A stretch of 64,000 bases of DNA from Gemmatimonadales bacterium (GCA_037189525.1 JBBCJC010000002.1:194286-258285), one strand, 5' to 3'. Positions 766 through 56,009 are shown, counted from the stretch's first letter. Notes: a model not told the origin generated them from the sequence alone. Numbers and translations are program-made.

Positions 766-1121
766 GAGGCCGGCTGCTGGTTGGCCTTGAGCACCTTGCC
801 CACCGCGTTCACAAATCCCGACCACTCGGCAGACTCCTCGCGCAGCGCCTTGCGACCCCGAACCGTGAGCCGGTAAAAGCGCGCTTTGCGATTGCGCTCC
901 GAGACCCGCCACTCGGACGCAATCGCGCCGCGGGCCTCGAGCCGGTGCAAAGCCGGATAGAGCGAGCCTTCACCGACGGTGAGGGCCTGGTCGGTGAGTT
1001 GCTCGATCCAGCGGGCAATGGCATAGCCGTGGGCGGGACCCCAGCTGAGGGCCTTGAGGATCAGGAGATCGAGCGTACCCTGAAGAAGGTCGAGAGGCAT
1101 GGGCGGGCGACCGGACGACAA
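762..1121 (-). CDS. PadR family transcriptional regulator
   Basis: 119 aa. LDLLQGTLDLLILKALSWGPAHGYAIARWI...GSLYPALHRLEARG...RKARFYRLT is the PadR winged-helix signature. The stop overlaps the downstream permease start. Confidence 0.9.
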   Translation of the reverse strand: MSSGRPPMPLDLLQGTLDLLILKALSWGPAHGYAIARWIEQLTDQALTVGEGSLYPALHRLEARGAIASEWRVSERNRKARFYRLTVRGRKALREESAEWSGFVNAVGKVLKANQQPAS

Positions 1122-1843: not shown

Positions 1844-2320
1844 ATGCGCGCCGTCCACCAGGTGGTGAGCCGCGCGCCCGATATTCGGCGAGGGACGCCC
1901 GTCTTTGCGGGCACGAAGATCCCCGTTCAGCAGCTGATTGACCACCTCGACCGGGGCGGGACACTCGAAACCTTCCATGAACGCCATCGCCAGCTGCCGC
2001 TCGATCAGTTGACGGCCGCCTGCGCCCTGGGCCTCGAACTGCTGGTCGGCACCGTGCCGATCGAGCCGGTGGCGCCGCAGGGATCATTACTCCCACGCGC
2101 CGACGCGAACGGCATCATCCTCAACGCCGAAGAACTGCGCGCCGACCAGGTGGTCGGCCGGCAAGTGCGCTGTCCGGCCTGCCGCGAACTCGTCTTCAAG
2201 TCGTGGCCGGAAGGATGGGACGGCCATGCCGCCACCCGGTGCCGCGGTCTCGCCGGACGCCAGCCGGGCACGCGTAAAGCGGAGTTCAAGCGCCGATTCG
2301 ACCACCTGTTCCGATCCTGA
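1844..2320 (+). CDS. DUF433-like protein with extra Cys/His C-terminal domain
   Basis: 158 aa. The N-terminal PDIRRGTPVFAGTKIPVQQLIDHLDRGGTLETFHERH fits the DUF433 pattern. The C-terminal region carries VRCPACRELVFKSWPEGWDGHAATRCRGL. Confidence 0.6.
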   Translation: MRAVHQVVSRAPDIRRGTPVFAGTKIPVQQLIDHLDRGGTLETFHERHRQLPLDQLTAACALGLELLVGTVPIEPVAPQGSLLPRADANGIILNAEELRADQVVGRQVRCPACRELVFKSWPEGWDGHAATRCRGLAGRQPGTRKAEFKRRFDHLFRS

Positions 2321-6223: not shown

Positions 6224-7816
6224 ATGCAGCGTCTGCGCCGGATCAGTCGTCTGGCCCTCTCGATAGTTGCCGGTACCGCCCTTCAGGCCTGTACCCCTTC
6301 TCAGTCGGTTCCCGCACCGGCGGTACGACCCAGCCTGGTCGTGTTCATCACCGTCGATCAGATGCAGCCCTCGTACTTTACCCGCTACGCATCGCAATTG
6401 CAGGGCGGATTTACGCGGCTGCTCGAGGGCGGAGCCGTCTTTACCAATGCCCATCACGATCACGGTATCACCGAGACGGCGCCGGGACATGCCAGCCTGA
6501 TGTCGGGGCGCTTTCCGCGCAGTACGGGGATTACCCGAAACCTCCGCGGCGTCAACGATACCAGTGTTCGTCTGATCGGGGCCCGCGATCTGGCCGCGTC
6601 GCCGTTCCGCTTCCGCGGCACGACCCTGACCGACTGGATCACGGCCGTCGAGCCCGACATGCGCGTCCTGTCCGTCTCGGCCAAAGATCGTGGTGCGATT
6701 CTCCCGATCGGGCGCTCGCGGCAGAACGTGTACTGGTTTGCCAACAACGGCATCTTCACGACCAGTACCTGGTATCGCGACACACTGCCGTCCTGGGTGC
6801 GCGCCTTCAATGCCCGCCGGATTCCGCAGAGCTACCTGGGCAAGGCGTGGATGCCGCTACTCGATCGCTCGGCGTATCCGGAGCCGGACACCGTGATGTT
6901 CGAGTTCCCCACCACCAAGGAATTCGCGTTCCCGCACTGGATTCCTGCGCACGACACGGTGGTGGCGATGAACCTCTACCGTTATTCGCCACTGATGGAC
7001 GAGATCACCGCGGCCTTTGCGCTCGAAGGCCTCCGGAACCTCGACATCGGCCGCGGACCGACAACCGATATCCTGGCGGTTTCGTTCTCGGCAACCGACT
7101 ATGTCGGCCACCGGTACGGTCCGGAATCGGTGGAACAGCGAGATCAGATCATTCGTCTCGATCGAGTCCTGGGCGCGTTCATCGACACGCTGTACCAACT
7201 CCGCGATTCGAGCCGCATCATCTTTGCACTGAGCGCAGATCACGGCGGCAGTCCGATTCCCGAACTGCACGGCCGTGTGCGCGTCCGTATTCGGCCCGCC
7301 ATGGCCGCGGCCCGAGCGGTGGTGGCCCAGGCCGGGGGCGACACGACGGCCCTCGATGTCGAAAGCGGCGCGTTCTTCGTCGATTCGGTGAAACTCGGCA
7401 CCAACGCCATTTCGGTGGATTCGATCGTGGCCGCCTTCATGGCCGCCGCCATCAAGATTCCGGGTGTCGAACGGGTCGATCGGTTCCGTGATCTGCGGCA
7501 GCGCAATCTCGAGCGCGATTACGTAGCCCGCAGATGGCTCCAGATGTTCCCCGCCGATATGGAACCCGCGGCCGTCGTCACCCTCGGCCGAGGAAACATG
7601 TATGACTACGGCGTGGCCGCTACGCACGGATCGCCGCACATGCAGGATTCCCACGTTCCGATGATCTTCTACGGGCCGCCCTTCGTGCCTGGGCGGTACA
7701 ACCAGTTCGTCCGGACCGTCGACATCGGTCCGACCCTGGCGCGCGCGCTCGGCGTGACACCGACCGAGCCGCTGGACGGTCGCCCGCTCACCGACGCACT
7801 GCGACGGGCGCGATAG
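6224..7816 (+). CDS. Alkaline-phosphatase-superfamily phosphodiesterase/nucleotide pyrophosphatase-like lipoprotein
   Basis: 530 aa with a lipobox-like signal (GTALQAC). VVFITVDQM, ETAPGHASLMSGRFP and SADHGG are typical of type I phosphodiesterase/AP-superfamily enzymes. Confidence 0.8.
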   Translation: MQRLRRISRLALSIVAGTALQACTPSQSVPAPAVRPSLVVFITVDQMQPSYFTRYASQLQGGFTRLLEGGAVFTNAHHDHGITETAPGHASLMSGRFPRSTGITRNLRGVNDTSVRLIGARDLAASPFRFRGTTLTDWITAVEPDMRVLSVSAKDRGAILPIGRSRQNVYWFANNGIFTTSTWYRDTLPSWVRAFNARRIPQSYLGKAWMPLLDRSAYPEPDTVMFEFPTTKEFAFPHWIPAHDTVVAMNLYRYSPLMDEITAAFALEGLRNLDIGRGPTTDILAVSFSATDYVGHRYGPESVEQRDQIIRLDRVLGAFIDTLYQLRDSSRIIFALSADHGGSPIPELHGRVRVRIRPAMAAARAVVAQAGGDTTALDVESGAFFVDSVKLGTNAISVDSIVAAFMAAAIKIPGVERVDRFRDLRQRNLERDYVARRWLQMFPADMEPAAVVTLGRGNMYDYGVAATHGSPHMQDSHVPMIFYGPPFVPGRYNQFVRTVDIGPTLARALGVTPTEPLDGRPLTDALRRAR

Positions 7817-10468: not shown

Positions 10469-13084
10469 CTAACGCCGCGGATCGAAGATCTGTTCGATCT
10501 GCGCCAAGGCATCCTCCAGGTGCGCCCGGGTCGCCCGATCGGCCGTCCGCGGTAAAGCGCGGCGGATGGCGCCCTCGAGCGTCCGAAGCTCGGCGCCGAA
10601 CGCGGACCGGATGTCGCTGGTTGCGCGCGCGGGCGCAAACTGCTGAGCAAAGACCGCCGGCAGCCCGGCCGGAAGCTGTACCGGCTGCGGATGGATCTTG
10701 TTGCGCGCCTGCGTCAGGTAACTCCGCTGCAGCTCGCGGCGGAAGGCGTCGATCGACACCGACCCGGAGGACAGTTCGCTCCAGACCCCGCCCCGTACGT
10801 CGGCCAGCATCTCGGTCAGCGCATAGGCGTCACGCGGCGACGAGGCCAGGGCTTCGAACTCGACCACCCGCTCCAGACGCCGATCGTTGAACAGCGCAGC
10901 GAGCACGCCGGCCTGCGCCGCATTGATACGCCGGAGCGCGCCCTCGACCTCGATGTTGCGGAGCACATCGTCGACCAGGAAGAAGGTCGGCGTGGCAAAG
11001 GCATTGGCATTGAGGAACTGTACCGCTTCCCGCTGCCGGGATCGCGACCAGGGCTTATAGCGATGATCGGCGTTCTGGCCGCCATAGGCCTCCTGCGCAT
11101 CGGCGCCGCCAACCATGATGGCCACGTGCCGCAACTCGGTGGCCCACTGCCCAATCAGACGATCGTAGAGCAAGCGCAGGTCATCGTAGTCCTGTCCGGG
11201 CCGTACCGCGGCCGGAATCAGCAGCGGGACGATCTGCTTGATGCTCTTGATGCCCCACCCGGTCGCCTTGACGGGATCGGCATCACCGACGGCCTCGCTG
11301 TGGTCGCCCGGATCGGCGCCGCGCGAATCCGACATATTGAACCGGTACCACGGAATCGAATCCTGCTCCCGCGACCAGCGATCCAGCGTCGGCCACTCAT
11401 CATCCGGCGTCCTGGCCGACGCGATCGGCGTGTAGCCCCAGCGCGTGATGTAGAGATCCCACGGGCCGATCTTCGGCACCAGATCCTCGAGCGGGATCTT
11501 GTCCTCCGGCTGCGCCACATAATTGAACCGGGAGTAATCCATGATCGACGGCGAGTGTCCCATCCGCCGGATCCAGCTCGCGCTGCGCAGCGAGTCGACC
11601 GGATAGGTGGAGCTGCCCTTCTGATCGTGCTGGTAGCCCAGCGTATGCCCCACCTCGTGCGCCACCACGAACTCCACCAGACGACCCATCAGCGAGTCCG
11701 GATACGGCCACATCCGCGCCCGCGGGTCGAGATGCGCAACCTGCGAGAAGTACCAGGTCCGCTGCAGCGTCATGATGTTGTGATACATGTAAATGTCGGA
11801 CTCGAGAATTTCACCGGTCCGCGGGTCGTGTACGTTGGGACCCTGGGCATTCTCGATCGTCGACGGCAGCCAGCGCACCACCGAGTAACGCGCATCCTCC
11901 GGCGCCCAATCCGGATCTTCCGCGGGCGTCGGCGCGTCCTTGGCGACGATGGCGCGCCGGAACCCGGCCGCCTCGAACGCCACCTGCCACTGCTCCACTC
12001 CACGCCGGACGTACGGCTTGAGCCAGTCGGGGGTCGCGGGATCGATGTAGTACGTGATCGGCTTGACCGGTTCCGACATCGCCGCGTTAGGATCTTTCTT
12101 CTCGAGCCGCCAGCGCACCAGGTACTCGCGCGTCTGCGACCGCTGCTCCGGACGACCGTAGTCGATCTGCTGCAGGGTAAAGAAACCGATCCGCTTATCG
12201 GCGAGCCGAGGCATCATCGGGTTCTCGGGCAGCTTGACCATGCTCCAGTACATGCTCACCGACGCCGTTCCGGTGGCGGCCGGCGCAAACGGATTGGCCG
12301 GCGCCGCGCCCGGCAGCTGCGGAGGCGGCGGAAAGGTGATGGTCGCCTGGACGTCGACGTTGGTCGGGAAGGCCAGCACCCGTTCGATGAACGAGCGATT
12401 CGGATCGGGCGTGCCGCGATACTGAGGCGCCCCCGGCCCGAACTCCGGCGGCGGCGCGGTGTACAGCCGCGAGACATCGACCACCGGCGCGCTGTCCGGA
12501 CCGAACGCTTCGATGTTGAACGCGGCGACCACGACGTCGTTGTTGGAGTTGCGCACCGCCTGGTACATCGGATTCAGCGAATCGGCGACCGTCGCATACG
12601 ACACCGAACGGAGCAGGACGCGATTGTCCCGCTGCTCCCAGCGCAGCACATAGGATCGGCCGAGTTGCTGGCCGCCGTAGCCGACGTTGAGGGGCGTCCG
12701 GGCCGCGCGGCTCACCAGCAACAGCTCCTGGCCCAGCTCACGGCGCGGAATCTCGAAGTAGAGCCGGCTCCCGACCCGGTGAGTCTTGAAGAGACCATCA
12801 CGGGTGGTGGCCTGCGGGGTAATGACGGAGCGGTACGGCCGAGGAGCCGGATCGCCACCGGGCGGCTGCGGAGCGGCCCGCCGGGTCGTGTCCTGCCCCG
12901 GGGCTGGAGCGGCAGCAGCCTGATTCGGACGCCCTGCCTGCTGGTTCGGTGTCGGGACCGCCGCCGGCGCGGCGGGACGACACGCGGCCCCCAGCACGAC
13001 CGTCGCCACCAGGGCCATCATGGCCCCCGGGACGGATGGCAGGGACCGAGCTTTGGGACGATCGACGTCGGTTGGTACAATCAT
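10469..13084 (-). CDS. Secreted zinc metalloprotease (HExxH)
   Basis: The track ORF (to 13585) is over-extended. ATG 13084 has a GAGG SD and gives MIVPTDV...MMALVATVVLGAAC. It carries the zinc motif VVAHEVGHTLGYQHD. The large flanking regions resemble DUF5117/DUF4953-type metalloproteases; those family names are from memory. Confidence 0.85.
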   Translation of the reverse strand: MIVPTDVDRPKARSLPSVPGAMMALVATVVLGAACRPAAPAAVPTPNQQAGRPNQAAAAPAPGQDTTRRAAPQPPGGDPAPRPYRSVITPQATTRDGLFKTHRVGSRLYFEIPRRELGQELLLVSRAARTPLNVGYGGQQLGRSYVLRWEQRDNRVLLRSVSYATVADSLNPMYQAVRNSNNDVVVAAFNIEAFGPDSAPVVDVSRLYTAPPPEFGPGAPQYRGTPDPNRSFIERVLAFPTNVDVQATITFPPPPQLPGAAPANPFAPAATGTASVSMYWSMVKLPENPMMPRLADKRIGFFTLQQIDYGRPEQRSQTREYLVRWRLEKKDPNAAMSEPVKPITYYIDPATPDWLKPYVRRGVEQWQVAFEAAGFRRAIVAKDAPTPAEDPDWAPEDARYSVVRWLPSTIENAQGPNVHDPRTGEILESDIYMYHNIMTLQRTWYFSQVAHLDPRARMWPYPDSLMGRLVEFVVAHEVGHTLGYQHDQKGSSTYPVDSLRSASWIRRMGHSPSIMDYSRFNYVAQPEDKIPLEDLVPKIGPWDLYITRWGYTPIASARTPDDEWPTLDRWSREQDSIPWYRFNMSDSRGADPGDHSEAVGDADPVKATGWGIKSIKQIVPLLIPAAVRPGQDYDDLRLLYDRLIGQWATELRHVAIMVGGADAQEAYGGQNADHRYKPWSRSRQREAVQFLNANAFATPTFFLVDDVLRNIEVEGALRRINAAQAGVLAALFNDRRLERVVEFEALASSPRDAYALTEMLADVRGGVWSELSSGSVSIDAFRRELQRSYLTQARNKIHPQPVQLPAGLPAVFAQQFAPARATSDIRSAFGAELRTLEGAIRRALPRTADRATRAHLEDALAQIEQIFDPRR

Positions 13085-13268
13085 GGAGATACCTCGGCGG
13101 CAAACCCGCGAAAACGAGCAAATTGTGACGGAGATCCCGGTCGGGATGGATTGAGACCGGACCATCTGAATTATACGCTTCGGTGTGCAGAAATGTTGAG
13201 CCACCCGGCGCCAACGCCGCTCGAGGCGGTATCTTGCCCCGTAACGACCGCCAGGACAGTCTCCTGCC

Positions 13269-16200
13269 ATGAAGCTCAGCCCTGACGGCAATCTCGTCTT
13301 CTCACCGAGCGACTTGATCGTCTTTCTCGAGGGAGACTTTGCCTCATGGATGGACCGGGCCCGTCTCGAGGCGGGACGGGGTGTCGCCATCCCGGCGCAC
13401 ATTGCGGCGGCCGCCGCGGATGAGCCATCGGACGAGACCGCGCTCTTTGCGCGCCTGGGCGATGCCCACGAACGCGCGGTGCTCGAACGGCTGCATGGCG
13501 TCGATGGCCCGATCGTCACGATCGATCGCGACAACCAGTCTCGCGAACGAACGCTCGAAGCCCTGACCCTGGCCCAAGCAACCATCTTTCAGGGTCACCT
13601 TGCCGACCCGCCATTCGAAGGCTACGCCGACTTCCTGCGCCGCGTTACCCATGAGAACGGGACCGCATTCGAGCCGTGGGACAGCAAGCTGGCACGATCG
13701 ACCCGGCCGTATTTCCTGGTTCAGCTCTGTTGCTACGCAGCCATGCTGGCCCGTGTCCAGGGTCACTTGCCGGCACGGCTCGGCGTGATTCTGGGCACCG
13801 GTGATGAGCTGACCTATCCGACGACGGATTTCATCCACTACTATCGCCACCTGCGGCGGCGTTTTCTCGCCTTTCAGGATCGCTTCGACCCGTCGGTCAT
13901 GCCCGACCCCGCCCTCGAGCGTGGCTTGGGCAGCTGGAGTGATTTCGCCCGGCAGGAGTTGATCCGGCGTGACGACCTTCGCCTCCTGGCCGGGGTGACC
14001 AGAAGCCAGATTGCCCGGCTCCGTGAATGCGGTATCCAAACCCTGGCCGCGCTGGCCACCGGCACGCGTCCGCCGGACCTCCGCATCAAGCAGGGCATCT
14101 TCGACCGTTTACAGGAACAGGCCCGTCTCCAGATCACCTCGCGGGGCCAGGAACGGCCTGTTTGGATCGTGGTGCCGCCGCCGGAGGAACGGCCCGGTCG
14201 CGGTCTGGGCGGCTTGCCACCGGCCACGCCCTATGACGTCTATCTCGATTTCGAGGGCTACCCGCTGCTCGGCAAGGACGGGTTGGAATACTTGGTAGGC
14301 GCCGTCACGATCGAGAGCGGATCGCCCGAGTTTCACGATTGGTGGGCTCACGATTCGCTGAGCGAGCGGCGCGCCTTCGAAGCGGTGGTCGACTGGCTCT
14401 GGTCGCGCTGGCGAGCCCAACCGGCGCTGCACATCTATCACTACGCGCCCTACGAAAAGACCGCGCTCCGGCGGCTGGCCGCCAAGTACGCAACCCGCGA
14501 AGACGAGCTCGACGACCTGCTGCGCAACGAGGTGCTGGTCGATCTCTACCCCATCGTTCGGCAAGGTATGGTGGTGGGGACGGAGAGTTACTCGCTCAAG
14601 GACATCGAGCGGCTCTATCGAGGACGTCGCGAAGGCACGGTCACGGCCGCCGGCGGATCGATGGTGGCCTATCAGAACTGGATCGACAGCGGCGAGCCCG
14701 GCGATTGGCGCGCATCACCCAGGCTGGCCGCGATTCGGGATTACAATCGCGACGACTGCGTCTCCACCTGGGAACTCGCCGAGTGGCTCCGCAAGAGGCA
14801 GACCGAGGCTGGCATCCCGTGGGCGCCGATCAAAGCCGCCGACGCCCAGAAGCCGCCGAGCGACAAGGAGCTCGAACGCCGGGCCAGGGTAGAGCCGCTG
14901 GAGCAGGAACTGCTGCGCCGCGCCGAGACTGCTACCGACCCGGAGTCCGGGCGGGTGACCGTCTTGCTTGCTCACCTGCTGCAATTTCATCGGCGTGAAG
15001 CGCGGCCGGTCTGGTGGGAGCTGTTCGATCGCGCTGCCAGGCCGGACGACGAGCTCGTCCATGACCATCGCTGCCTGGTCGGCATGGAGCGGACCTCGCG
15101 CCCGCCCTTTTCGATCAAGCGTTCATTCGGATACGAGTATCGGTTCGATACCGAACAGGATTTTCATATCCATGCCGGCGACACCGGCCGCCTGCCACAC
15201 GACCTCGACATCAAAGCATCGATCGAGAGCATCGACCCCGACGCCGGACTCGTCGTCATCAAGACGACCGCCGGGAAGTTGCCCAAGACCGCGACATTCA
15301 TCGAGCATCGGTTCTTTTCGGCGGATGCGATTGCCGACAGCATCTTTCGTTTCGTGACCCGCTGGTCTCAGCGTACGCTCTCCGACCGCAATGCCGTGAT
15401 CGACGTACTGCATCGGCGCGCGCCGCGACGAAAGTCCACTGCATCCGGCCCGCTCATTCCCGGCGACACGACCGATTTCCTCGCCGACCTGATTCGCGTC
15501 GTGGCCGACCTCGACGACAGCTCGCTCTGCATCCAGGGTCCGCCCGGTACCGGGAAGACCTGGAGCACCGCCCAGGTCATCCTGGCGCTGGTCAACGCCG
15601 GCCATCGCGTCGGTGTCGCGTCCAACAGTCACTCGGCCATCCGGAATTTGATGGTGACGGTGGCTGAGCACGCCGCACGTCGCGGGACACCGGTTCGTCT
15701 GGTCAAAGCCGGTCAGGATGACGACGGGCTCGAGGCGCTCGCGGCTCACGGAATCACGCAGATCGAGTCGGGGGATGCCGCCGGCGCCTGCGAAGCTGGC
15801 CCGCTCGTGCTGGGTGGGACAGCGTGGGTCTTCTCGCGGGAGGATATGCAGGAACCGACGCCGCGACTCGACTATCTCTTCGTCGATGAAGCCGGGCAGG
15901 TCTCACTCGCCAATCTGGTCGGTATGGGCAGCGCCGCGCGCAATCTCGTCCTGATCGGCGACCAGATGCAGTTGGCGCAACCGGTCAAAGGCAGCCATCC
16001 CGACGAGAGTGGCGACTCCTGCCTGGAGTACGCGCTACAGGGTCACGCCACCGTTCCACCCGATCGCGGCGTCTTCCTGCCGACGACCTGGCGGATGCAT
16101 CCGGACATCTGCGAGTTCGTTTCGGCGGCGGTCTACGAGCACCGCCTGCACGGCGCACCGATTACCCGAACCCATCGGCTGGAGCTGTCGAAGCCGGGGC

Positions 16201-16700
16201 CGATCGATCGCGGGACCGGTATCGTACTGATTGATGTCGACCACGACGGGAACACTCAGGACAGCGAAGAGGAAGTCGCAGCCATCGGCGCGATCGTCGA
16301 CCAGCTCGAGGGTGGAACCGTCGAAATCGAGGGGACCCAACGGCCGTTCGATCGGACCCGTGATATCCTGATCGTGGCTCCGTACAACCTGCAGGTCCAT
16401 CGCCTGCGTCAGGCCCTTCCGGATCTCCAGATCGGGACGGTCGACAAATTCCAGGGGCTCGAAGCGCCGGTGGTCATCGTCTCGATGTGCGCCTCTTCGC
16501 TGGAGGATGCCCCGCGCGGCGCTGCATTCCTGCTCAACCCGAATCGCCTCAATGTCGCGATTTCGCGGGCGCAGTGCCTTGCCGTGGTGGTCGGATCGCC
16601 CGACCTGACGATGACGCGCTGCACCAGCGTCGCGGAGATGAAGCTGGTCAACCTCTACTGTCACCTCCGCGACTACGCGACTGGAGCGTTAGCGGAGTAA
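13269..16700 (+). CDS. RecB-like (TM0106-type) PD-(D/E)xK nuclease fused to an Upf1/DNA2-like SF1 helicase
   Basis: 1143 aa. N-terminal part: [37 protein letters not shown] (D...E.D.K nuclease pattern), then [12 protein letters not shown]-terminal part: Walker A GPPGTGKT, Walker [33 protein letters not shown]. Confidence 0.85.
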
Positions 16701-20966: not shown

Positions 20967-21512
20967 ATGCGATACCTTTCCGTGGTGGGGACCCTCGTTC
21001 TCCTCGCTGGCGCGCCTCCTCTCGCGCTTCACGCCCAGGAGCGCGGTCACGCCGCGTCTGCTGCGCTCCGGGTCGGGGGCGCGCCGGATAACGGCGGCAC
21101 AGCCTCACTCGGCTTCGAGTTCCGCAGCCCGGCTGCCGGGCGAATCGCGCTCAGTGCAGGCGTCGACCGCTGGTTTCGGGCGGTTGGTTGCGACGCCGCC
21201 ATCGGGGCACCAAGTGATGGTGGCGCGTGGGCTGCGGAAGCCGGTCTGATACTCCATTTGGCCCCAGCGACACGGGCTATGATTCCCTACGCTGCAGCGA
21301 GGCTCGGTCGCCTGTTTCCAGACAACTCCGCTGAGGAGCCTGGGTGGAATCCAAGCCTCAGCGTCGGCTTCGCTGCTCGCGCACAGTCGACCGTGGGATT
21401 CGTCTTTGAGGTCAAGTACAGTGCACTGATCGGTGAGGAGCCTATACCCTCGAAATATGCAGATCGGAGCGATCGGGTTTTCGTTCAGGGGGGAGTCAGG
21501 CTTTCCTTCTAG
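20967..21512 (+). CDS. Small exported protein, probable outer-membrane beta-barrel
   Basis: 181 aa with signal peptide MRYLSVVGTLVLLAGAPPLALHAQ. It has alternating hydrophobic beta-strand patterning and a C-terminal aromatic residue (VRLSF). Confidence 0.5.
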   Translation: MRYLSVVGTLVLLAGAPPLALHAQERGHAASAALRVGGAPDNGGTASLGFEFRSPAAGRIALSAGVDRWFRAVGCDAAIGAPSDGGAWAAEAGLILHLAPATRAMIPYAAARLGRLFPDNSAEEPGWNPSLSVGFAARAQSTVGFVFEVKYSALIGEEPIPSKYADRSDRVFVQGGVRLSF

Positions 21513-21891: not shown

Positions 21892-24780
21892 CTAACGAAC
21901 CACGTCGTTCCAGTTGAGCAATGTGTTGAAGACCATGCCAAACTCCCCGTGGTTCTGCCAGCGATAGATCGGGTTGTTCGAGAAGAGAACGACGCGGCCG
22001 TTGCCGTACCGTGCGCGCGGAATGTCGACGACGAACGGGCGTCCCTTGAGCGAATCGGCGCCGATCATCAGACCGGACAAGACCGAGGCGTCGCCGCCGA
22101 CGTAGCGCGCGACCACATTGTCCTCGTGCGCGACGCCGACCCGGAACGGCTGACCGCCCACGTACTTGACCGGGATGGTCTTGCCGGCATAGCCATAAAA
22201 GATCGGGTGATCGGTGCGCACGATCTCGCCCTGGATCAGCGGGCGGCGCGTCGTAAGGCCAGGCACGGTCACTCGCTCGACCGTACCGGCCCAGCCGAAT
22301 TCGATCGGGAGGCGTGCCGCATCGCCGATGGCAATCAGCGTCCCGCCCGCTTCGAGAAAGGCCGCGAAGGCATCGACGCCGGCCTGGCCGAAGCCGCCGG
22401 TGATATCGGGAGACTCACCGTACATGCCGAGGAACTGGTACTTGTCGCTCTTCTGGTAGGGAACCGGCTTTTCGTTCGGGAGCCGCATCACCGCCGTCCG
22501 GCTGAGATCCTGTTCCGCCGTGAAGATGACGTCGTACTTGGCGCGCAGGTTCCCCTGGACCACTTGCTCCTTGTAGATCAGATCGAAGGGAATCTCGAAA
22601 TTGTCGAACGTCAGCCGGTACCAGCCGAGATTCTGAGTTCCGGTCCACTGCGAGTAGACCGCGATCCGCGGCAAATCCGCCTCATGCGTCGGCACGTCCG
22701 GCATGCTCGACAGAGCTGCTGCCGTGAGGCCGAGCGATTCGACCGCCGTCCGCACCGCCGCGGCATGCGTGGCCCCGGTCACCAGGAACGACCCCGCTGG
22801 AAACTCGACACCGTCCACCTTGAAGGCGCGCTGCGCCACCTTCATCGGGACGTCGCGAAGACGATAGCGGAGGGTGACCATGTGGTTGGAACCCAAGTGC
22901 GCGATCGCGATGCCTGCCGAGCCGCTGCCGGTTACCGTTCCTTTGAGCGTGACGGTCGTGACCAGCGTGGTCGATACTTTGAGAATCGACGCATCGGCCA
23001 CTTCGACGACGTCGAGACCCATGGCATAGCCCATGGTCCAGCCGCTGTCGTCATAGGTGTTGAGCCGGGCATCGGGGAACTGCTGCTTTTCGAGCAGGTT
23101 CTTGGCCAGCCGGCCGTAGGGCTGATCCCGCTTGATCACGTACGACCCGGCCGGATAACTCACCGAATCGATCTTGAAGGCCTGCCGCGCAACCCCGACC
23201 TCGATTCGCTGGCTCCGCAGGATGTTGACGAGTTCCGCCGCGCGGGTCATGTCCCGCTGGACCGGAATCACATAGCCGAAGGGCGCCTTGGTCTTCCCTT
23301 CCTCGATCGAGTTCTTCGTCTTGACGTAGAAGTTCTCGAGGATGGTGGCCGGGAACATGGCGGCGAGCTGCAGCGCGGAGAGCACCCCCGTCTGCATATA
23401 GTTGGCATTGGCGCGGCGGGTGAAGTTGGCCGAATCCTCCGGACCAATCGGAATGCCGCGGTACCATTCGCGATCCTGCGCCCCGCCCCGACCGGTCGGG
23501 ATTCCTCCCGGTCCGGCACCGGTCGCCGGCCGTGCCGCACCCGCACGGCCGCGGGCCGAGTCAGCCTTCGTGGAATCGGGACGCGGCGCGACGCGCTCGA
23601 CATTATCGAGGTCGCGACCTGACTGCGTCTCGTACATCTTCATCAGGCCGTTGTGATTGTAGGCCACCGACCCCAAATACCCGGGCGACCACCCGTCCAT
23701 GAACGCATGAGTGTAGACGCCAGGCATGCCGTACTTGGTCATCTGGGCCATTTCCCAGTTGGCAAACCACGGCAGCTCCGCAAACAGGAGCGGATCGAGA
23801 TTCGGATTCTGCGGCGCGGCACCGCTGTAGCTGTACAGGAGCGGCAAAGATTCGTGCAGGTCGTGCATGATCGGCGGATAGGCGGTGAAGTACCAGTCCA
23901 CCAGGGAACGCATCTGGATCAGTGACAGGTTGATGTCACGATTGTTGTCGTGATAAGCATAACGCCCCCAGTACGGCACGTTGGGAGTGATCCGCCGCGC
24001 CAGCTGACGCACACTATCCCGTACGGCTTCGCTGGCCCGCGTCGTATCAGGCGGCGGCGGCCGGAGCGGATTGTTCAATCCGGCTTCGAGGTTGCGATGG
24101 AACCAGTCGACGTTACGATCTCGGCCATCCGCATCAGCCGCCGGCGTGATGGAGACGATCAGATTCTCGCGGATCTGCGAGATGATCGGCGAGGTTTCCG
24201 TCGCGAGCCGGTAGACCAGCTCCATCAGCATCTCGGACGGACCCGTTTCACCGCTGTGCAATCCGCCCATCAGGTGATAGTGCGGCTTGGTCTGCTTGAT
24301 CAACGCGGCGATGTCGGCGTCGGTTTTGCCGCGCGGGTCGGCAATGGTCGCCAGGTTGCGCTTGTTGGCGTCCAGCGTCTTCATATTCTCTTCCGACGTG
24401 ACCCAGACGACCACCAGCTCGCGCCCCTCGTCCGACCGGCCGATCGTCTCGATTCGGACCCGCGGCGTTGCCGCAGCCAGCGCGCGGTAGTAACGAAGCT
24501 GGTCCGCATAGTACGTCAGCCGCTTCGGAATCCCGATGTGGTACCCCAGGATGTCACGGGGCGTCGGAATCCCGGCAACCAGCGGAAGGTGGTCGACCAG
24601 CGGGCTACCGAGCCGCGGATTGGGCAGCCATTCCCGATAGCTCTTTTCGAACGTCGGATCCTGCTTCTGATTGGGATCACGAGTCGCGGTAGAGGTCTGC
24701 TGGGCGGCGAGAGACGACGCGAGGAGCGTACAGGCAAAAGCCGCCGCTCCGGCAGTCGCGCGGACCGATCGGAGGTTCAT
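21892..24780 (-). CDS. Large exported M14-family zinc carboxypeptidase-like protein
   Basis: 962 aa with signal MNLRSVRATAGAAAFACTLLASSLAAQ. It carries the HxxE zinc-ligand motif in GGLHSGETGPSEMLMELVYRLA. Confidence 0.8.
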   Translation of the reverse strand: MNLRSVRATAGAAAFACTLLASSLAAQQTSTATRDPNQKQDPTFEKSYREWLPNPRLGSPLVDHLPLVAGIPTPRDILGYHIGIPKRLTYYADQLRYYRALAAATPRVRIETIGRSDEGRELVVVWVTSEENMKTLDANKRNLATIADPRGKTDADIAALIKQTKPHYHLMGGLHSGETGPSEMLMELVYRLATETSPIISQIRENLIVSITPAADADGRDRNVDWFHRNLEAGLNNPLRPPPPDTTRASEAVRDSVRQLARRITPNVPYWGRYAYHDNNRDINLSLIQMRSLVDWYFTAYPPIMHDLHESLPLLYSYSGAAPQNPNLDPLLFAELPWFANWEMAQMTKYGMPGVYTHAFMDGWSPGYLGSVAYNHNGLMKMYETQSGRDLDNVERVAPRPDSTKADSARGRAGAARPATGAGPGGIPTGRGGAQDREWYRGIPIGPEDSANFTRRANANYMQTGVLSALQLAAMFPATILENFYVKTKNSIEEGKTKAPFGYVIPVQRDMTRAAELVNILRSQRIEVGVARQAFKIDSVSYPAGSYVIKRDQPYGRLAKNLLEKQQFPDARLNTYDDSGWTMGYAMGLDVVEVADASILKVSTTLVTTVTLKGTVTGSGSAGIAIAHLGSNHMVTLRYRLRDVPMKVAQRAFKVDGVEFPAGSFLVTGATHAAAVRTAVESLGLTAAALSSMPDVPTHEADLPRIAVYSQWTGTQNLGWYRLTFDNFEIPFDLIYKEQVVQGNLRAKYDVIFTAEQDLSRTAVMRLPNEKPVPYQKSDKYQFLGMYGESPDITGGFGQAGVDAFAAFLEAGGTLIAIGDAARLPIEFGWAGTVERVTVPGLTTRRPLIQGEIVRTDHPIFYGYAGKTIPVKYVGGQPFRVGVAHEDNVVARYVGGDASVLSGLMIGADSLKGRPFVVDIPRARYGNGRVVLFSNNPIYRWQNHGEFGMVFNTLLNWNDVVR

Positions 24781-24867: not shown

Positions 24868-26124
24868 TCAGCGCGCGCCGCCGGTCGCGATGACGCGGCC
24901 GTCGACCGCATCTATATAGAGGTCCGCGGTGCCGGCCGCATCGGCAAACCCGACGCGCCAGGCCAGCCGATGAGCAGGATCGGCCAGCTCGGTCGGGCGA
25001 ACATAGCAGAGCGCCGGAGTACCGGGCATCATCTCGGAGTCGAGCTCCCGCTCGGTCCGAGCAGCGAGCGCCAGCCGCAGCGCCTCCTCCGCATCCAATT
25101 CCGCCCCGGTGCGCGGCAGCAACGACTGTGCCCATCGCGTCCTCACGCCGACCAAACGCCCCGACTCGGCGTGGACCTCCACCTGATGGAAGTCGCCTGC
25201 GACCGGGATATCATTGGACAGGTGGAGCCATGTCACCCGCCAGGTCCGCACTGGATCACTCCGACCGACCCGGCCGGCCGTGGGATTGCTGGCGCCTTCG
25301 GGAGGCGGTGCGGTACGGGTCGCTGCCGCGATGAGCGCCGCCACCGGCAGCGAACGCCGCGCCGGCGGATCGGCCAGGCGGGCTAGCGACCATCCGGCCA
25401 CGGGACCACCCGGACCGTCGACCTCGACCGTCGCCGCCGACCAGTGACGCCAGGTTGCCAAGCGCACCTGACGTCCACCGCCGTAGCCTTCGACGTTCTC
25501 GAGCGCAAGCACGACATACCGATGCGCCGGTTTCGGCCGAATTCCCGCGCGACGGAGGCGGGCTTCGAACAAATCGAGCATCGCCAGGCGCGCACGATAC
25601 TCGATGGCGCCGTCCGAGACGTCGAATGCCCGGCCGCTCAGCACCTGAATCGCCCGATGGGTTGCGGGGTCGGCCCAGACCCGTACCGCGCCAACCTGGC
25701 CTCGGATCGAGGTTCGAATCCGGACCTCGTAGGTCCAGCCGAGCGGATCGAGAAAGACCGCTCGCTGCTCGCGCACCTCCGCACCAACCAGGGCGAGCTC
25801 CGCCACGACCGCCTGCCCGACCTCTGGACCAGGCGCCGGCGGCCGAACCGCGGCGCCGAGCCGGCCGTCGTCCCGCCAACCGACCAGGCCGTCTTCCCGA
25901 TCGAAGAAAACCACCACATCGGGACCCGCTGCCAGCACCGACAGGTCGACCCGCCGAACCGGCGCCAGCGAGGGATGCAGGCTCGACTCCTCCGTCTCGT
26001 ACGCGAGGATTCGCCGACCGGTCGGCCGGCCCTCGGGTAGCCGCTCTTCGATCAGCCGCTCGGCCCGAGCCCAGTCGGGATCCGGACCGGCACGCGAACC
26101 GCTGGACGGAGGCGGTTCAGCCAA
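24868..26124 (-). CDS. Four-repeat PepSY-like protein (candidate inhibitor/immunity partner)
   Basis: 418 aa. TTG start overlaps the upstream stop by 8 nt. There are four modules of about 90-100 aa, each ending in a PepSY-like turn: FFDREDGLVGW, WADPATHRAIQV, VHAESGRLVGV, IDAVDGRVIAT. The last module begins LDAEEALRLALAA. Confidence 0.5.
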   Translation of the reverse strand: MAEPPPSSGSRAGPDPDWARAERLIEERLPEGRPTGRRILAYETEESSLHPSLAPVRRVDLSVLAAGPDVVVFFDREDGLVGWRDDGRLGAAVRPPAPGPEVGQAVVAELALVGAEVREQRAVFLDPLGWTYEVRIRTSIRGQVGAVRVWADPATHRAIQVLSGRAFDVSDGAIEYRARLAMLDLFEARLRRAGIRPKPAHRYVVLALENVEGYGGGRQVRLATWRHWSAATVEVDGPGGPVAGWSLARLADPPARRSLPVAALIAAATRTAPPPEGASNPTAGRVGRSDPVRTWRVTWLHLSNDIPVAGDFHQVEVHAESGRLVGVRTRWAQSLLPRTGAELDAEEALRLALAARTERELDSEMMPGTPALCYVRPTELADPAHRLAWRVGFADAAGTADLYIDAVDGRVIATGGAR

Positions 26125-27994
26125 GAGCGGCCTCGCCGTGATCGGGCGGTAACGGATCGAACCCCATGCGTTCGTCTATCGACCGGAGCCGAGGTTCGTA
26201 ATACACCGGGTCGCCGGTCCGTGCCAGCTCCGCATATACCTCGACGAACCGGTAGGGGTCCCACTCATCCTGACCCATGTCGACCCCGGTTTCCTTGATC
26301 CAGCGTCGAAAGAGCCGGCTCGCAAAGGATGCGTTGACCTGGCCGTCGACCGAATACACCCAACCATGGGTGTAACAGGTTCCGTTCGTTGCGTACCAGC
26401 CGATCAGCCCGTCGCTCACTGCGGTTCGGCAACCGCCCACGTAATGCAGGAACCGCGGCACCGCGTCCGCCTCGATACTGAGGGCGCCTTCCGCCAGCTG
26501 TCGATTCGCGCCACGAGTACCGACCTGGACGTAGTCGTCGTCAGTCGCCTGGCGATTGTGACGATTCATCAGCATCACACCGCTTCCCACCATCGGAATG
26601 GTCCGATACGGACCCGGGTTGCCACAGCCGAGTTGAATCGGCCAGGCATACTCGGCGTGATGCTCGACCGCCTCCGCTTCTGCTTCGGGACTTAGGTATC
26701 GATCGGGGCAGACCAGCCCGTCAGGCGGAAAACCCGAATGGGGGTGATCGATCGGCTGATTGTTGCGAGTCGGGTGATCGGCATGCCAGCAATCGCCGTA
26801 TGCATGACCGATATGTACCACGATGTACCGGTTGCGCGTCTGGCGATGATACTCCGCCGGCGTCGTCATCGGGCTCGTCAGGACCGTGGCGTGAAAGTAC
26901 TTTGAGTGCCGGTTCATGACCTCGCCGATTTCCCGAATCGCCGGCACCCGATAAGGGTTGTCTCGCGAGGCCGCATACAACAGGCACATGAAGCGCATGT
27001 GGAGAGCATCGCGCTCGTGGGCGAGGTAATCCCGTTCAGTCACCGGTATCCAACGGTCGCTCTGGCCGACCTGAATCCAGAGGGCGTAGAAGTTGTTCCC
27101 GGGATACTTCCAGTGCTCGGCATGATTGCCGAAGATCACCTTCGGGTTGCGTCCGCTCACCTTGACGTTGCCGCCACGCACGGTGCCCGGCTCGATCCCT
27201 GGCTGCGCAGATGCGTCCCGGCCGGAAAAGTCGTAGAGGCGGTCGTGCGCCGGGGCCTCGATCTCGACGATGCGCGTCACGGCGAATCGGATCGGTGTAT
27301 CGTCCGGGACGTTCTTGAGCCTCAGGTCGATTTCCGTGTCACCGCGCGCCGGCTCGTCTGGATCGCCGGCAGGCAACACCGACCGACTGGCCCAGCGCGC
27401 CCGCACTACGATGTCGATCGGCACCATGACCGCATCGTGGGACACCGTACCTTCGTCGTCGGGCCCCGGCGGTTCGTCGGCATCCCGATTCCAGACCTCG
27501 AGCCGCACCCAGACCGGCGCATCCAGCGCGGAGATCCGTCCGCCGCCCGCCAGATCTCCCGACCAGCGCCGCTCCTCAACCAGCGTGTGCGCACCGTGGA
27601 TCAATTCGTCGGACTGCAGGGCAATGGTGTGTAGTGCGGTGGGTTCGGGGTCGCCGTCGGGGAGGGCCAGCTGCTCGCCGATCTCCGCGCCGATTGCCGG
27701 CCCCGTATCGGCCGACTCGGTGGTGTCGTCGCCACCCGAATCGTCCGCTGTATCGGCATCGTCACGCGTTTCTTCTCGAGGGGGAGACCGATAGAAACTC
27801 AAACGCCCGCGCCGGATCTGGGCATTGGGATCGAATACCCGATAACTGAGCAACAGACGATCGGTCGAAGGATCCCAGCGCGGCGGTCCGCTCAGTTCGG
27901 CAACCGAAAAGCCGGCGACGCGAATTTCGGTTTCACGGCCGGTTCGGACGTCATCGGTCAAGACTGGTGCAGCTTCGTCGGAGGGCTCTGTCAT
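26117..27994 (-). CDS. 625-aa hypothetical protein, candidate DUF4123-dependent effector
   Basis: ATG overlaps the upstream stop (ATGA). It has an acidic low-complexity linker (REETRDDADTADDSGGDDTTESADTG) and a His/Cys-rich C-terminal domain (YIVVHIGHAYGDCWHADHP...HPHSG...FLHYVGGCRTA). No family is recognised. Confidence 0.6.
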   Translation of the reverse strand: MTEPSDEAAPVLTDDVRTGRETEIRVAGFSVAELSGPPRWDPSTDRLLLSYRVFDPNAQIRRGRLSFYRSPPREETRDDADTADDSGGDDTTESADTGPAIGAEIGEQLALPDGDPEPTALHTIALQSDELIHGAHTLVEERRWSGDLAGGGRISALDAPVWVRLEVWNRDADEPPGPDDEGTVSHDAVMVPIDIVVRARWASRSVLPAGDPDEPARGDTEIDLRLKNVPDDTPIRFAVTRIVEIEAPAHDRLYDFSGRDASAQPGIEPGTVRGGNVKVSGRNPKVIFGNHAEHWKYPGNNFYALWIQVGQSDRWIPVTERDYLAHERDALHMRFMCLLYAASRDNPYRVPAIREIGEVMNRHSKYFHATVLTSPMTTPAEYHRQTRNRYIVVHIGHAYGDCWHADHPTRNNQPIDHPHSGFPPDGLVCPDRYLSPEAEAEAVEHHAEYAWPIQLGCGNPGPYRTIPMVGSGVMLMNRHNRQATDDDYVQVGTRGANRQLAEGALSIEADAVPRFLHYVGGCRTAVSDGLIGWYATNGTCYTHGWVYSVDGQVNASFASRLFRRWIKETGVDMGQDEWDPYRFVEVYAELARTGDPVYYEPRLRSIDERMGFDPLPPDHGEAALG

Positions 27995-28317
27995 CGCCGA
28001 GCTCGATCGGGAATGGCGGTGAATCGGGCCATGCCACCGCTGCGCGCCAAGCCCTCGAAACGAACCCGACCCTCACGGTCGGTGCGCCCTTCCAGCGTTT
28101 CACCGGTATCCAGTTCGATCCGCACATCCTGGTCGGGCACCGGGTCGCCCGCGTCGTCCCGGAGAACGACGCCAAGCCAGGTGTCCTGCGGATCATCCGG
28201 GAGGACCGGCCCCGGTTCGGTTGCCGGACGCGGCCCGGTACGGCACGGTGCGCAGGCCGATCCGCCGCCGGGCGGAGCAAGCGCGTCCGCCTGCGCCTGG
28301 GAAACTCGAAGCGTCAT
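27991..28317 (-). CDS. 108-aa small beta-rich protein (transthyretin/CarboxypepD_reg-like pattern)
   Basis: Coupled by ATGA overlaps on both sides. VVLRDDAGDPVPDQDVRIELDTGETLEGRTDREGRVRFEGL resembles small beta-sandwich adaptor domains. The assignment is weak. Confidence 0.5.
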   Translation of the reverse strand: MTLRVSQAQADALAPPGGGSACAPCRTGPRPATEPGPVLPDDPQDTWLGVVLRDDAGDPVPDQDVRIELDTGETLEGRTDREGRVRFEGLARSGGMARFTAIPDRARR

Positions 28318-28892
28318 CGGATGGCCCCGCCGAGTGAAGCGTGCTGCTCGCCGATGCGCCGCCAGAGGAGTTCACAGGAACCATCCGGACGACCAACAGC
28401 GAATGCGTCGACCGGGCCGAAGAAATCGGGCAGGTCGACATCCGGCGCGGTGAGATAGCGGGACAACACTCGGGGATCGTAATAGCGGAAGTACCACGAT
28501 TCGCCCGCCGGACTCTCGACGATGAGGAACTGCCGGAAGTGGCGATACAGCGCTTCGAAACCGGCGCCGGACAGCACCAGCACACCCCACGGCTCGTGCC
28601 ACACCGTGTCCCGCAGCCACGCGAGCGTGTCGGCATCGACCCGAAACAGATACGGCGCAATGGCCCAGAGTTCTTCCTCGGCGCGCCCGCGATAGAGCGA
28701 CCGCGCGCGGCCGGGATTAGAGGCTCGGCACCGGACCGGAACCGCGGGCTGATCGCAGGCATCGACGAGCGCATAGAGGCGGCCGGCATCGGACCATCGG
28801 GTGATGGTTGCCGGGGCAACATCGGTGCGTTGAAGCGAGGTCACCCGGAAAATATGGGTCAGCGGCGGCCGGAGCGGCAACGTCGCATTCAA
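28314..28892 (-). CDS. DUF4123 domain protein (T6SS effector adaptor/chaperone family, Tap/Tec-like)
   Basis: 192 aa. TTG 28892 has GGAG 5 nt upstream. LYALVDACDQP...LYRGRAEEELWAIAPYLFRV...WL...WGVLVLSGAGFEALYRHFRQFLIVESPAGESWYFRYYDPRVLSRYL matches the DUF4123 consensus as I recall it. Confidence 0.8.
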   Translation of the reverse strand: MNATLPLRPPLTHIFRVTSLQRTDVAPATITRWSDAGRLYALVDACDQPAVPVRCRASNPGRARSLYRGRAEEELWAIAPYLFRVDADTLAWLRDTVWHEPWGVLVLSGAGFEALYRHFRQFLIVESPAGESWYFRYYDPRVLSRYLTAPDVDLPDFFGPVDAFAVGRPDGSCELLWRRIGEQHASLGGAIR

Positions 28893-28940
28893 TCAGGCTC
28901 CGTTGCGATTGGGAAATCGGTCCGGTACCTTCCGTCCTAT

Positions 28941-28961
28941 TGAACATCTATAGGTGAACAT
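28941..28961. promoter_or_regulatory. Direct TGAACAT repeats in the PadR / DUF4123-operon divergent gap
   Basis: TGAACAT occurs at 28941..28947 and 28955..28961, separated by CTATAGG (contains the CTATAG palindrome). The same heptamer flanks the palindrome upstream of the other PadR gene (1170..1176). The second copy overlaps the PadR start region. Confidence 0.25.
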
Positions 28962-29292
28962 GGCCGCAGACAAACTCGACCTGCTGCAAGGCACTCTGGA
29001 TCTCATCGTGCTCAAATTATTGCAGGGCGGTCCGGCCAATGGCTGGCAGCTGACGCAGACGATTCAGGTCGTGTCGCGCGGTATCCTCGACGTCAATTAC
29101 GGCTCGCTCTATCCGGCGCTGCGCCGACTCGAGGCCAAGGGTATGGTGAGCGCCGAATGGGGGCCGTCAGAAAACAACCGCCGAGCCCGATTCTACAAAC
29201 TGACGACCGTCGGCCGCAAACAACTGACCAAAGAGCGCGCCGACTGGGAGCGCTTCACCAGCGCACTCGGCCTGATCCTCGCCACCGAATAG
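28954..29292 (+). CDS. PadR family transcriptional regulator (no adjacent permease)
   Basis: 112 aa. LDLLQGTLDLIVLKLLQGGPANGWQL...GSLYPALRRLEAKG...RRARFYKLT fits PadR. The start may be GTG 28954 or ATG 28960. Confidence 0.9.
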   Translation: MNMAADKLDLLQGTLDLIVLKLLQGGPANGWQLTQTIQVVSRGILDVNYGSLYPALRRLEAKGMVSAEWGPSENNRRARFYKLTTVGRKQLTKERADWERFTSALGLILATE

Positions 29293-38812: not shown

Positions 38813-39148
38813 TTAGGTGTTGTCCTTGATCGTGGTAGACGTGCCGTTGGTCTTGACCGAACTGATTCCGCCTTCACACGAATCGGCGGAGGCATACATC
38901 TGACTGGTACCGATCACCTGGGAATTGGCAGCCTTCAAGTTGAAGTAAAACTTGCCGTTGGAGGCCGTGTTGCGCTCGTAACGCTCATCGGCGCCACAGT
39001 TGGACTGCACCGACGCAATCCCGTTTTGCGCCGACGCCTTGGCCTTGTACAGCTCGCTGTTGAGGATGACCTCGCCGTTTCCGGCCTTCAAGACGAACTT
39101 GAATTGTCCATCGGCACTCGTTGCCAATTCATACCATCCAGCCATCAT
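38813..39148 (-). CDS. YegP/DUF1508 tandem-domain protein
   Basis: 111 aa. It has two repeats of the F.F.LKA.NG.VI..S..Y.....A..GI.SV pattern: QFKFVLKAGNGEVILNSELY...AQNGIASVQSN and KFYFNLKAANSQVIGTSQMY...CEGGISSVKTN. Confidence 0.85.
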   Translation of the reverse strand: MMAGWYELATSADGQFKFVLKAGNGEVILNSELYKAKASAQNGIASVQSNCGADERYERNTASNGKFYFNLKAANSQVIGTSQMYASADSCEGGISSVKTNGTSTTIKDNT

Positions 39149-53023: not shown

Positions 53024-53025
53024 CG

Positions 53026-56007: not shown

Positions 56008-56009
56008 GG

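Follow-up and report, generated by a model that had tools for sequence, protein, structure and literature searches.

The window analyzed here is a stretch of 64,000 nucleotides from a Gemmatimonadales bacterium (GCA_037189525.1, JBBCJC010000002.1:194286-258285). Its minus strand carries four genes, called g1 to g4 below, that overlap by 4, 4, and 8 nt at junctions reading ATGA, ATGA, and TTGGCTGA. The first encodes a DUF4123 protein, the second a small protein with a transthyretin-like (TTR) domain, the third a candidate effector, and the fourth a candidate immunity protein ending in a PepSY domain (Table 1). A sequence-only reading of this DNA had described the four overlapping minus-strand genes, the DUF4123 and PepSY-like products of the first and last of them, and the flanking genes for a divergent PadR regulator and an M14 peptidase. 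Reading of the open reading frames (ORFs) and junctions, together with Pfam searches, bore out each of these points. We argue that this module very probably encodes a type VI secretion system (T6SS) cargo effector with its loading helpers and immunity protein, located apart from the T6SS core genes.

The product of g1 matches Pfam DUF4123 (PF13503) with an E value of 2.3e-28 and 99.2 bits (cutoff, 25.8) over profile positions 1 to 111 of 119. DUF4123 proteins of the Tec/Tap type mediate effector loading onto VgrG (reviewed in PMC10433429). The NCBIfam model for Tla1, the chaperone of Tle1, scores 41.7 bits on g1, under its equivalog cutoff of 200, and g1 is a relative inside the DUF4123 family, not Tla1 itself. 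A PDB sequence search with the protein returned nothing useful. Among the related loci (loci and proteins from our searches are cited by L and P numbers where needed), L002, L010, L011, and L014-17 each have an ortholog of g1 on the upstream side of such a module, and the order DUF4123-TTR-effector is conserved across five lineages. Since these orthologs have only 176 to 188 residues, the real start of g1 may lie later than annotated.

The relatives of g3 are found beside genes for the T6SS spike. In a Phycisphaerae metagenome-assembled genome (MAG; L007), the g3 homolog belongs to a series that runs ClpV, VgrG (with Phage_GPD, Gp5_trimer_C, and Phage_base_V domains), a 912-residue peptidoglycan (PG)-binding protein, a 296-residue PAAR-TTR protein, the g3 homolog, and two proteins of 165 and 170 residues, the latter with a DUF4901 match. 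One metagenome locus (L012) has ClpV, VgrG, a 131-residue TTR ORF, PAAR-TTR, and the g3 homolog; another (L004) has the C-terminus of VgrG, PAAR-TTR, the g3 homolog, and three small ORFs. In two contigs from Logan assemblies (L005 and the contig of P0009), a PAAR gene precedes the g3 homolog and a protein of ~410 residues follows it. In L008, also metagenomic, the upstream ORF is open to the contig edge and has the poly-Gly linker that characterizes these PAAR proteins. The full four-gene order of the window recurs at effector identities of 95%, 80%, 54%, and 48%. At 54% (L011), the DUF4123-TTR-effector module lies next to a PAAR-TTR gene divergent from the DUF4123 gene, and at 48% (L002/L003), a PAAR-TTR gene is convergent just downstream of the complete module; in L002 this gene was missing from the gene list and was located by tblastn at 13631-14626. 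The window itself, L001, L010 (80% identity), and L014-17 have a PadR gene on the g1 side and no PAAR gene. Because of these genomic contexts, with PAAR, VgrG, and ClpV in synteny, we take the g3 family to be T6SS cargo, of which the window holds a version without a nearby PAAR gene. Among the three possibilities that the sequence-only reading had left standing, an orphan effector island serving a distant T6SS is thus clearly favored: the family follows PAAR in unrelated lineages, twice within ClpV-VgrG-PAAR clusters, and two Gemmatimonadales-type relatives have PAAR adjoining the same module.

Table 1. Positions of the module genes, their predicted parts, and other features (window coordinates unless a locus is named)
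Feature	Position	Strand	Size or residues	Evidence or remark	dN/dS
g1, DUF4123 adaptor/chaperone candidate (Tec/Tap type)	28314-28892	-	192 aa		0.146
DUF4123 domain in g1	28446-28778	-	aa 39-149	Pfam PF13503	
g2, free TTR domain protein	27991-28317	-	108 aa		0.058
Linker-like N-terminus of g2			first 37 aa	contains Gly, Pro, and Cys	
TTR loading domain of g2 (predicted)	27994-28206	-	aa 38-108	blastp and profile	
g3, candidate T6SS cargo effector	26117-27994	-	625 aa		0.112
Tandem Ig-like beta-sandwich region of g3, presumed loading part	27005-27910	-	aa 29-330	AlphaFold2 model, DSSP	
Acidic disordered loop of g3, clade-specific	27641-27787	-	aa 70-118	pLDDT < 60	
Divergent CHAT/caspase-like alpha/beta domain of g3 (predicted)	26183-27004	-	aa 331-604	AlphaFold2 model and profile comparison	
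Putative catalytic His397 of g3	26804-26806	-			
Putative catalytic Cys522 of g3	26429-26431	-			
g4, candidate immunity protein	24868-26124	-	418 aa		0.163
Intergenic region between g1 and PadR	28893-28953		61 bp		
PadR-family regulator, divergent from g1	28954-29292	+		Pfam PadR, E 1.5e-19	0.052
M14 peptidase, downstream flank	21892-24780	-		Pfam	
Formyltransferase flank					0.148
Giant operon, five ORFs	46641-62025	-	617, 1573, 993, 1120, 886 aa	Pfam	
Split g4 modules, L004	3259-4410			separate genes	
Split g4 modules, L007	11788-13033			separate genes	
Split g4 modules, L008	2416-3679			separate genes	

The PAAR genes of these relatives have further neighbors. On the minus strand of L011 (both genes at 323-1721), L003 (7010-8559), and L002 (13080-14626), the PAAR-TTR gene is followed by a gene for a protein of 142 to 183 residues; these proteins have no Pfam match, share a similar N-terminus (IKxxLGDxVxVK), and may be a separate small cargo of the adjoining PAAR-TTR protein. 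The 912-residue protein of L007 (6118-8856), between VgrG and PAAR, combines an apolipoprotein-like region with PG_binding_1, and proteins of 196 (PG_binding_1), 434 (OmpA-like), and 531 residues adjoin PAAR in L002 (14697-18247).

The second gene ties the module to the same spike proteins. In blastp comparisons, residues 38 to 108 of g2 match the C-terminal extensions of the PAAR proteins of L005 (E = 1.6e-16), L012 (9e-15), L007 (4e-14), and L004 (4e-12), and the g2 core is also homologous to the extreme C-termini of the VgrG proteins of L004 and L007 (for L007, VgrG residues 741 to 784, E = 2e-7). Searched against the PDB, the g2 family profile (A5) finds prealbumin-like domains, including the TTR region of P. 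aeruginosa VgrG2b (6h56, E = 3e-4), and it also matches residues 783 to 815 of VgrG1 from enteroaggregative Escherichia coli (EAEC; 6sjl, E = 0.009). In Pfam, g2 gives sub-threshold matches to prealbumin- and immunoglobulin (Ig)-like beta-sandwich families, the best being CarboxypepD_reg at 22 to 23 bits against a cutoff of 32.3; they hint at the fold class but do not place g2 in any Pfam family. By these comparisons g2 appears to be a carrier-free copy of the TTR domain that ends those PAAR and VgrG proteins. The similarity to the PAAR proteins begins inside the Gly/Pro linker that follows the PAAR domain, and for this reason g2 looks like a PAAR-TTR protein minus its PAAR domain; its 37-residue N-terminus, which has just three Arg, is similar to that linker. 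Of the four genes g2 is the best conserved (92% amino acid identity to L010, and the lowest dN/dS of the module), and its CxPC-containing N-terminal stretch is conserved too. Through its TTR domain, EAEC VgrG1 binds the Tle1 cargo (PMC10433429), and modules of TTR, effector, and immunity genes are carried by PAAR, VgrG, or RIX, the TTR being predicted to touch the effector N-terminus (PMC10435454). As a separate observation, L012 (4485-6956) has a VgrG of 660 residues and then a separate TTR ORF of 131 residues (6561-6956), a domain that in L004 and L007 forms part of VgrG itself; this ORF reflects either a frameshift or another natural free TTR.

No Phage_GPD (VgrG), PAAR, Hcp, sheath, or baseplate domain was found in the window by a Pfam scan that covered coding-like ORFs of at least ~100 residues, other than ORFs antisense to larger genes and a 181-residue ORF at 20967-21512; Hcp and sheath were checked by Pfam alone. 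For VgrG and PAAR, a tblastn search of the window, for which related loci supplied the queries (two PAAR proteins and the C-terminal fragment of a VgrG), gave the TTR domain of g2 as its sole match, and a hidden PAAR gene was rejected on this negative result. To the extent of this coverage, the sequence-only reading was right that the window lacks VgrG, PAAR, Hcp, and sheath genes. What Pfam does detect in it are peptidases, amidohydrolases, lysine and threonine biosynthesis enzymes, a Ser/Thr kinase, regulators, and a helicase. The 64 kb are free of tRNA genes.

Such a window invites the view that the module is stranded, the T6SS having been lost or never present and the genes persisting as a selfish, toxin-antitoxin-like pair or decaying. 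The lack of any spike or core gene in 64 kb fits this view, and so does the fact that the PAAR neighbor of L011 and L002/L003 is missing from the window, L010, and L014-17. Against it, none of the four genes is disrupted, and two of them are loading genes, which could serve no purpose if there were no T6SS. Ratios of nonsynonymous to synonymous substitution rates (dN/dS), computed against the 80%-identity lineage (L010), where dS is 0.75 to 1.07 and so near saturation, are 0.06 to 0.16, like those of neighboring housekeeping genes; all four module genes are under purifying selection. At 80% identity, moreover, two or more lineages keep the arrangement at the same site, and islands of orphan effectors are frequent among bacteria with a T6SS. 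We therefore regard a stranded module as unlikely, and a genome without T6SS in which the module uses another route as very improbable.

The g1-g4 arrangement is not due to chance, because the same order recurs in relatives and all four genes are under purifying selection. In the sister genome L015 (ENA ERZ2606016 NODE_1, a near-complete single contig of 4,413,814 bp; also available as GCA_019637315.1, L014), the module occupies the same chromosomal site, which reads PadR, DUF4123-108-625-417 (sizes of the last three products in residues), M14 peptidase, aspartokinase (lysC), dapB, dapA, and dapD. The G+C content at third codon positions (GC3) is 0.70 to 0.76 in g1 to g4 versus 0.78 to 0.85 in most of the window. 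A recent horizontal arrival of the module, an idea taken from this lower GC3, was rejected, since the site is kept in the 80%-identity sister lineage.

The third gene belongs to a rare and undescribed protein family. Its product has no match in Pfam (E <= 1), NCBIfam, or PADLOC; a search of 5.8 billion protein clusters gave six relatives, including one from a Gemmatimonadales MAG, and with a family profile 74 were obtained from 1.84 billion representatives. Scans with the profile A1 gave two loci in genome contigs and two in metagenome contigs, and word-index homolog searches with A2 or g2 as the query returned close relatives only. Outside the close Gemmatimonadales relatives, overall identity within the family is 24 to 39%. 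An AlphaFold2 model of g3 from a 7-sequence alignment was poor (predicted local distance difference test [pLDDT] score, 52); with 34 distant members added, the 41-sequence alignment gave a model with pLDDT 89.9 and a predicted template modeling (pTM) score of 0.84. In this model residues 29 to 330 are all-beta by DSSP. Foldseek paired this region with tandem beta-sandwiches in the PDB, namely the barrels of factor XIII/transglutaminase, the MG domains of complement, and RbmA. Within the beta region, 16 of the 49 residues of the acidic loop are Asp or Glu; this loop is confined to the 5 DUF4123-linked members among the 41 and absent in the other 36, and it may be the handle bound by the DUF4123 chaperone.

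The C-terminal part of g3 is modeled with the topology beta-alpha-beta-alpha-beta(His)...beta(Cys)-alpha, in which His397 follows one core strand and Cys522 a later one; in the model, this order of strands, helices, His, and Cys is that of caspase-fold peptidases. Between the two residues is an insert of ~120 residues that holds Cys402, His407, Cys429, and Cys457. Each of these four, like His397 and Cys522, is kept in 40 of the 41 family members, and the four together are probably a structural metal site. The A1 profile reaches a distant group, P0066-P0078, with E values of 1e-9 to 6e-4 (in 1.84 billion proteins). Of its members, P0077 scores above the Pfam threshold for CHAT (36.2 bits, E = 5.9e-9); for five others the scores are 13 to 24 bits, over the same region of the CHAT profile. 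When the g3 family (A2) was compared with the distant group (A4) by hhalign, the two aligned over 333 columns (probability, 99.8%; E = 4e-29), with His397 and Cys522 in register with the invariant H233 and C293 of the distant group. The C-terminal domain of g3 thus appears to be a remote but consistent homolog of CHAT/caspase domains, linked to them via intermediates. By the Pfam criterion of a direct match, which g3 fails, it is no CHAT member, and we class it as a remote homolog. With the clan CD caspase-fold cysteine peptidases of the CHAT type (PF12770) it has in common a significant remote profile similarity, an aligned, putative His/Cys dyad placed where consecutive core strands end, and, in the model, the alpha/beta sandwich order of secondary structure; unlike them, g3 falls under every Pfam threshold, carries the Cys/His-cluster insert, and has beta-sandwiches in front of the domain. 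The sequence-only reading had seen no recognizable toxin family in the proteins downstream of g1. Families can now be named for two of them, a VgrG/PAAR-type TTR domain in g2 and a remote CHAT/caspase-like domain in g3. A full-text literature search gave no characterized CHAT-domain T6SS effector, only an annotation remark for B. fragilis (PMC11854122). In one distant relative, P0068, OmpA and PG_binding_1 domains are fused to the CHAT-like domain.

The product of g4 matches PepSY (PF03413) at residues 343 to 413 (33.3 bits; cutoff, 24; E = 6e-8). It is a fusion of three modules (residues ~23-164, ~174-331, and ~343-413), with PepSY-like endings in several repeats. A g4 homolog always stands directly after the effector, at ~30% identity across lineages, the L011 copy being cut by the contig end; because of this constant position, g4 is probably the immunity protein. 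The homolog is one fused protein (408 to 418 residues) in the Gemmatimonadales clade (L002 and L010), in L005, and in the P0009 contig; L004, L007, and L008 instead have two or three separate genes, with the modules arranged differently. The 170-residue split middle module of L007 is the one that matches DUF4901 (27.5 bits; cutoff, 27), and L008 has the order N-module, 80-residue PepSY-like protein, and middle module. PepSY domains are usually extracytoplasmic. Reading of the sequences revealed no hydrophobic signal sequence at the N-termini of g4 and its homologs, and both g4 and the toxin target are therefore probably cytoplasmic. With the inhibitory propeptide-type modules of secreted M4 peptidases, g4 shares the terminal PepSY domain and the similar repeat endings, and protease inhibition would fit an immunity role; it differs from them in being apparently cytoplasmic and multi-module, and in having as its partner a predicted Cys/His rather than a metallo-peptidase domain. 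A PDB search with the immunity alignment A6 gave nothing useful.

The distant CHAT-like group also has PepSY-like partners. In L009 (316-2377) the CHAT protein P0077 is followed by proteins of 159 and 98 residues, of which the latter is homologous to the PepSY-like module (E = 1e-11). This partner supports a protease-inhibitor relationship and hints at a wider pairing of protease and inhibitor beyond T6SS. No spike gene is visible on this short contig, and g4 is, as argued above, probably cytoplasmic; both points suit a non-secretion role, in which an intracellular CHAT-type protease and its PepSY-like inhibitor would form, for example, a stress- or phage-triggered suicide or defense switch, with DUF4123 a mere folding chaperone. 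CHAT/caspase-like proteases do work in bacterial defense systems. PADLOC, however, matched none of the four proteins, and a defense-system reading was ruled out on that basis. Moreover, wherever the context examined was informative, the g3 family proper adjoins PAAR or VgrG, and the spike-type TTR domain of g2 would have no function in such a switch. The non-secretion role is thus improbable, slightly more so than stranding, and for the non-secretion role of DUF4123 that the sequence-only reading had listed, nothing was found in its favor.

A further proposal is that the DUF4123/TTR logic is reused by another delivery machine, either an extracellular contractile injection system or the five-gene giant operon of the window (Table 1), which the sequence-only reading had mentioned as a long shot. 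This operon is almost wholly uncharacterized, which leaves room for such an idea: DUF6603 in the 1120-residue protein and a weak PhoD-like/DUF7800 match in the 886-residue protein are its only Pfam features, four of the five proteins giving none or marginal ones. Pfam detected no secretion or contractile-system domain in it (no sheath, tube, baseplate, spike, or ATPase domain), and the giant operon was ruled out as the delivery machine for this reason. It lies 18 kb from the module, with unrelated metabolic and regulatory genes between, and no comparable operon stands beside the effector in the related loci examined (including L002, L007, and L012), in which PAAR, VgrG, and ClpV recur instead. 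Reuse by another machine is the least credible of the alternatives, and the suggestion remains unsupported. The G+C content of the operon is ~0.70 versus 0.64 to 0.67 elsewhere in the window.

On the reading that we prefer, a T6SS effector module apart from the core genes, the parts would work as follows. The TTR domain of g2 would bind the N-terminal beta-sandwiches of g3, and g1 would keep the resulting complex stable and attach it to a VgrG whose gene lies elsewhere, thus substituting for the covalent PAAR tether of other lineages. The spike would then deliver g3 into a neighboring cell, where its CHAT-like domain, with the putative His397/Cys522 dyad, would most likely cut a cytoplasmic target as a cysteine protease. 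In the producer and its kin, g4 would block the active site of g3. The analysis itself establishes the domain identities, the synteny of relatives with PAAR, VgrG, and ClpV, the conservation of residues, and the purifying selection; secretion, the sequence of loading contacts, and the protease, toxic, and immunity activities are inferred.

Two known arrangements come close to this one. With the Tec/Tap-1 systems (V. cholerae Tap-1/TecL, TseL, and VgrG1), the module has in common a DUF4123 gene directly upstream of effector and immunity genes, translational coupling, and a possible location off the main cluster. Unlike them, it has an extra free TTR gene between adaptor and effector, a short DUF4123 protein (176 to 192 residues), and no adjacent vgrG, and its host belongs to the Gemmatimonadales rather than the Proteobacteria. 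With the TTR-effector-immunity modules (Kanarek et al. 2023, PMC10435454; EAEC VgrG1 TTR-Tle1, 6SJL), it shares a TTR directly upstream of effector and immunity genes; the PAAR-fused form of such a module is seen directly in L004, L005, L007, and L012, and the upstream VgrGs of L004 and L007 carry the same TTR. Unlike the modules of that study, the TTR of g2 comes without a carrier (no PAAR, VgrG, or recognized RIX), has a conserved 37-residue N-terminus, and is paired with DUF4123. From both arrangements the module is set apart by the combination of DUF4123 with a carrier-less TTR, the CHAT-like toxin domain, and the PepSY-array immunity candidate.

Several points weigh against our reading. 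The window holds no T6SS core, VgrG, or PAAR gene, and a T6SS in this organism is an assumption, not an observation; T6SS has been reported from Gemmatimonadetes (PMC9113992). The link to CHAT is transitive, g3 itself being without a Pfam match, and PDB sequence searches with the effector profiles A1 and A2 and with the CHAT-like group A4 found nothing. The joint action of DUF4123 and a free TTR has no experimental precedent, and the literature search gave none for a cytoplasmic PepSY-type T6SS immunity protein.

A few other features of the window deserve mention. The PadR gene next to g1 is a possible lineage-specific regulator of the module: the PadR/DUF4123 arrangement is kept in L001, L010, and L014-17, and in L002 and L011 this side instead holds sigma-70/YCII genes or a PAAR gene. 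A search of the intergenic region between g1 and PadR gave no match to the sigma-70 promoter consensus. The gap at 20.5-21.9 kb contains an ORF with a signal peptide that resembles an outer-membrane protein. On the plus strand at 13269-16700, a 1143-residue ORF with RNase H-like and AAA_11/AAA_12 helicase domains overlaps the start of a DUF4953 met-zincin gene (10469-13585, minus strand) by ~300 nt, and the real start of the helicase is probably further downstream. A second PadR gene by a MacB-like fragment (762-1121, minus strand), a DUF433 protein (1844-2320, plus strand), and a tandem DUF1508 protein (38813-39148, minus strand) are not linked to the module.

A bolder version of our proposal, which we put forward as a possibility rather than a probability, is that this effector family switched its attachment to the spike. 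From the PAAR-TTR fusion of most lineages, the PAAR part would have been lost, leaving a free 108-residue TTR that, with a recruited DUF4123 chaperone, would make an undescribed two-piece adaptor; the cargo would be the first T6SS protease toxin of the CHAT/caspase type, neutralized by a cytoplasmic PepSY array. The finding fits the known modular logic of T6SS loading and does not overturn current views. If the proposal is true, the pairing of a caspase/CHAT-type protease with a PepSY-type inhibitor would be a new class of T6SS toxin, and the relatives would offer a natural experiment in which the same effector-immunity pair is served by a PAAR-TTR tether or by a free TTR with DUF4123. The division of labor between the TTR platform and the Tec/Tap adaptor would then be directly testable, and the pieces could be possible parts for engineered cargo-loading systems. 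The module comes from Gemmatimonadota and Planctomycetota, phyla in which the biology of T6SS is almost unstudied.

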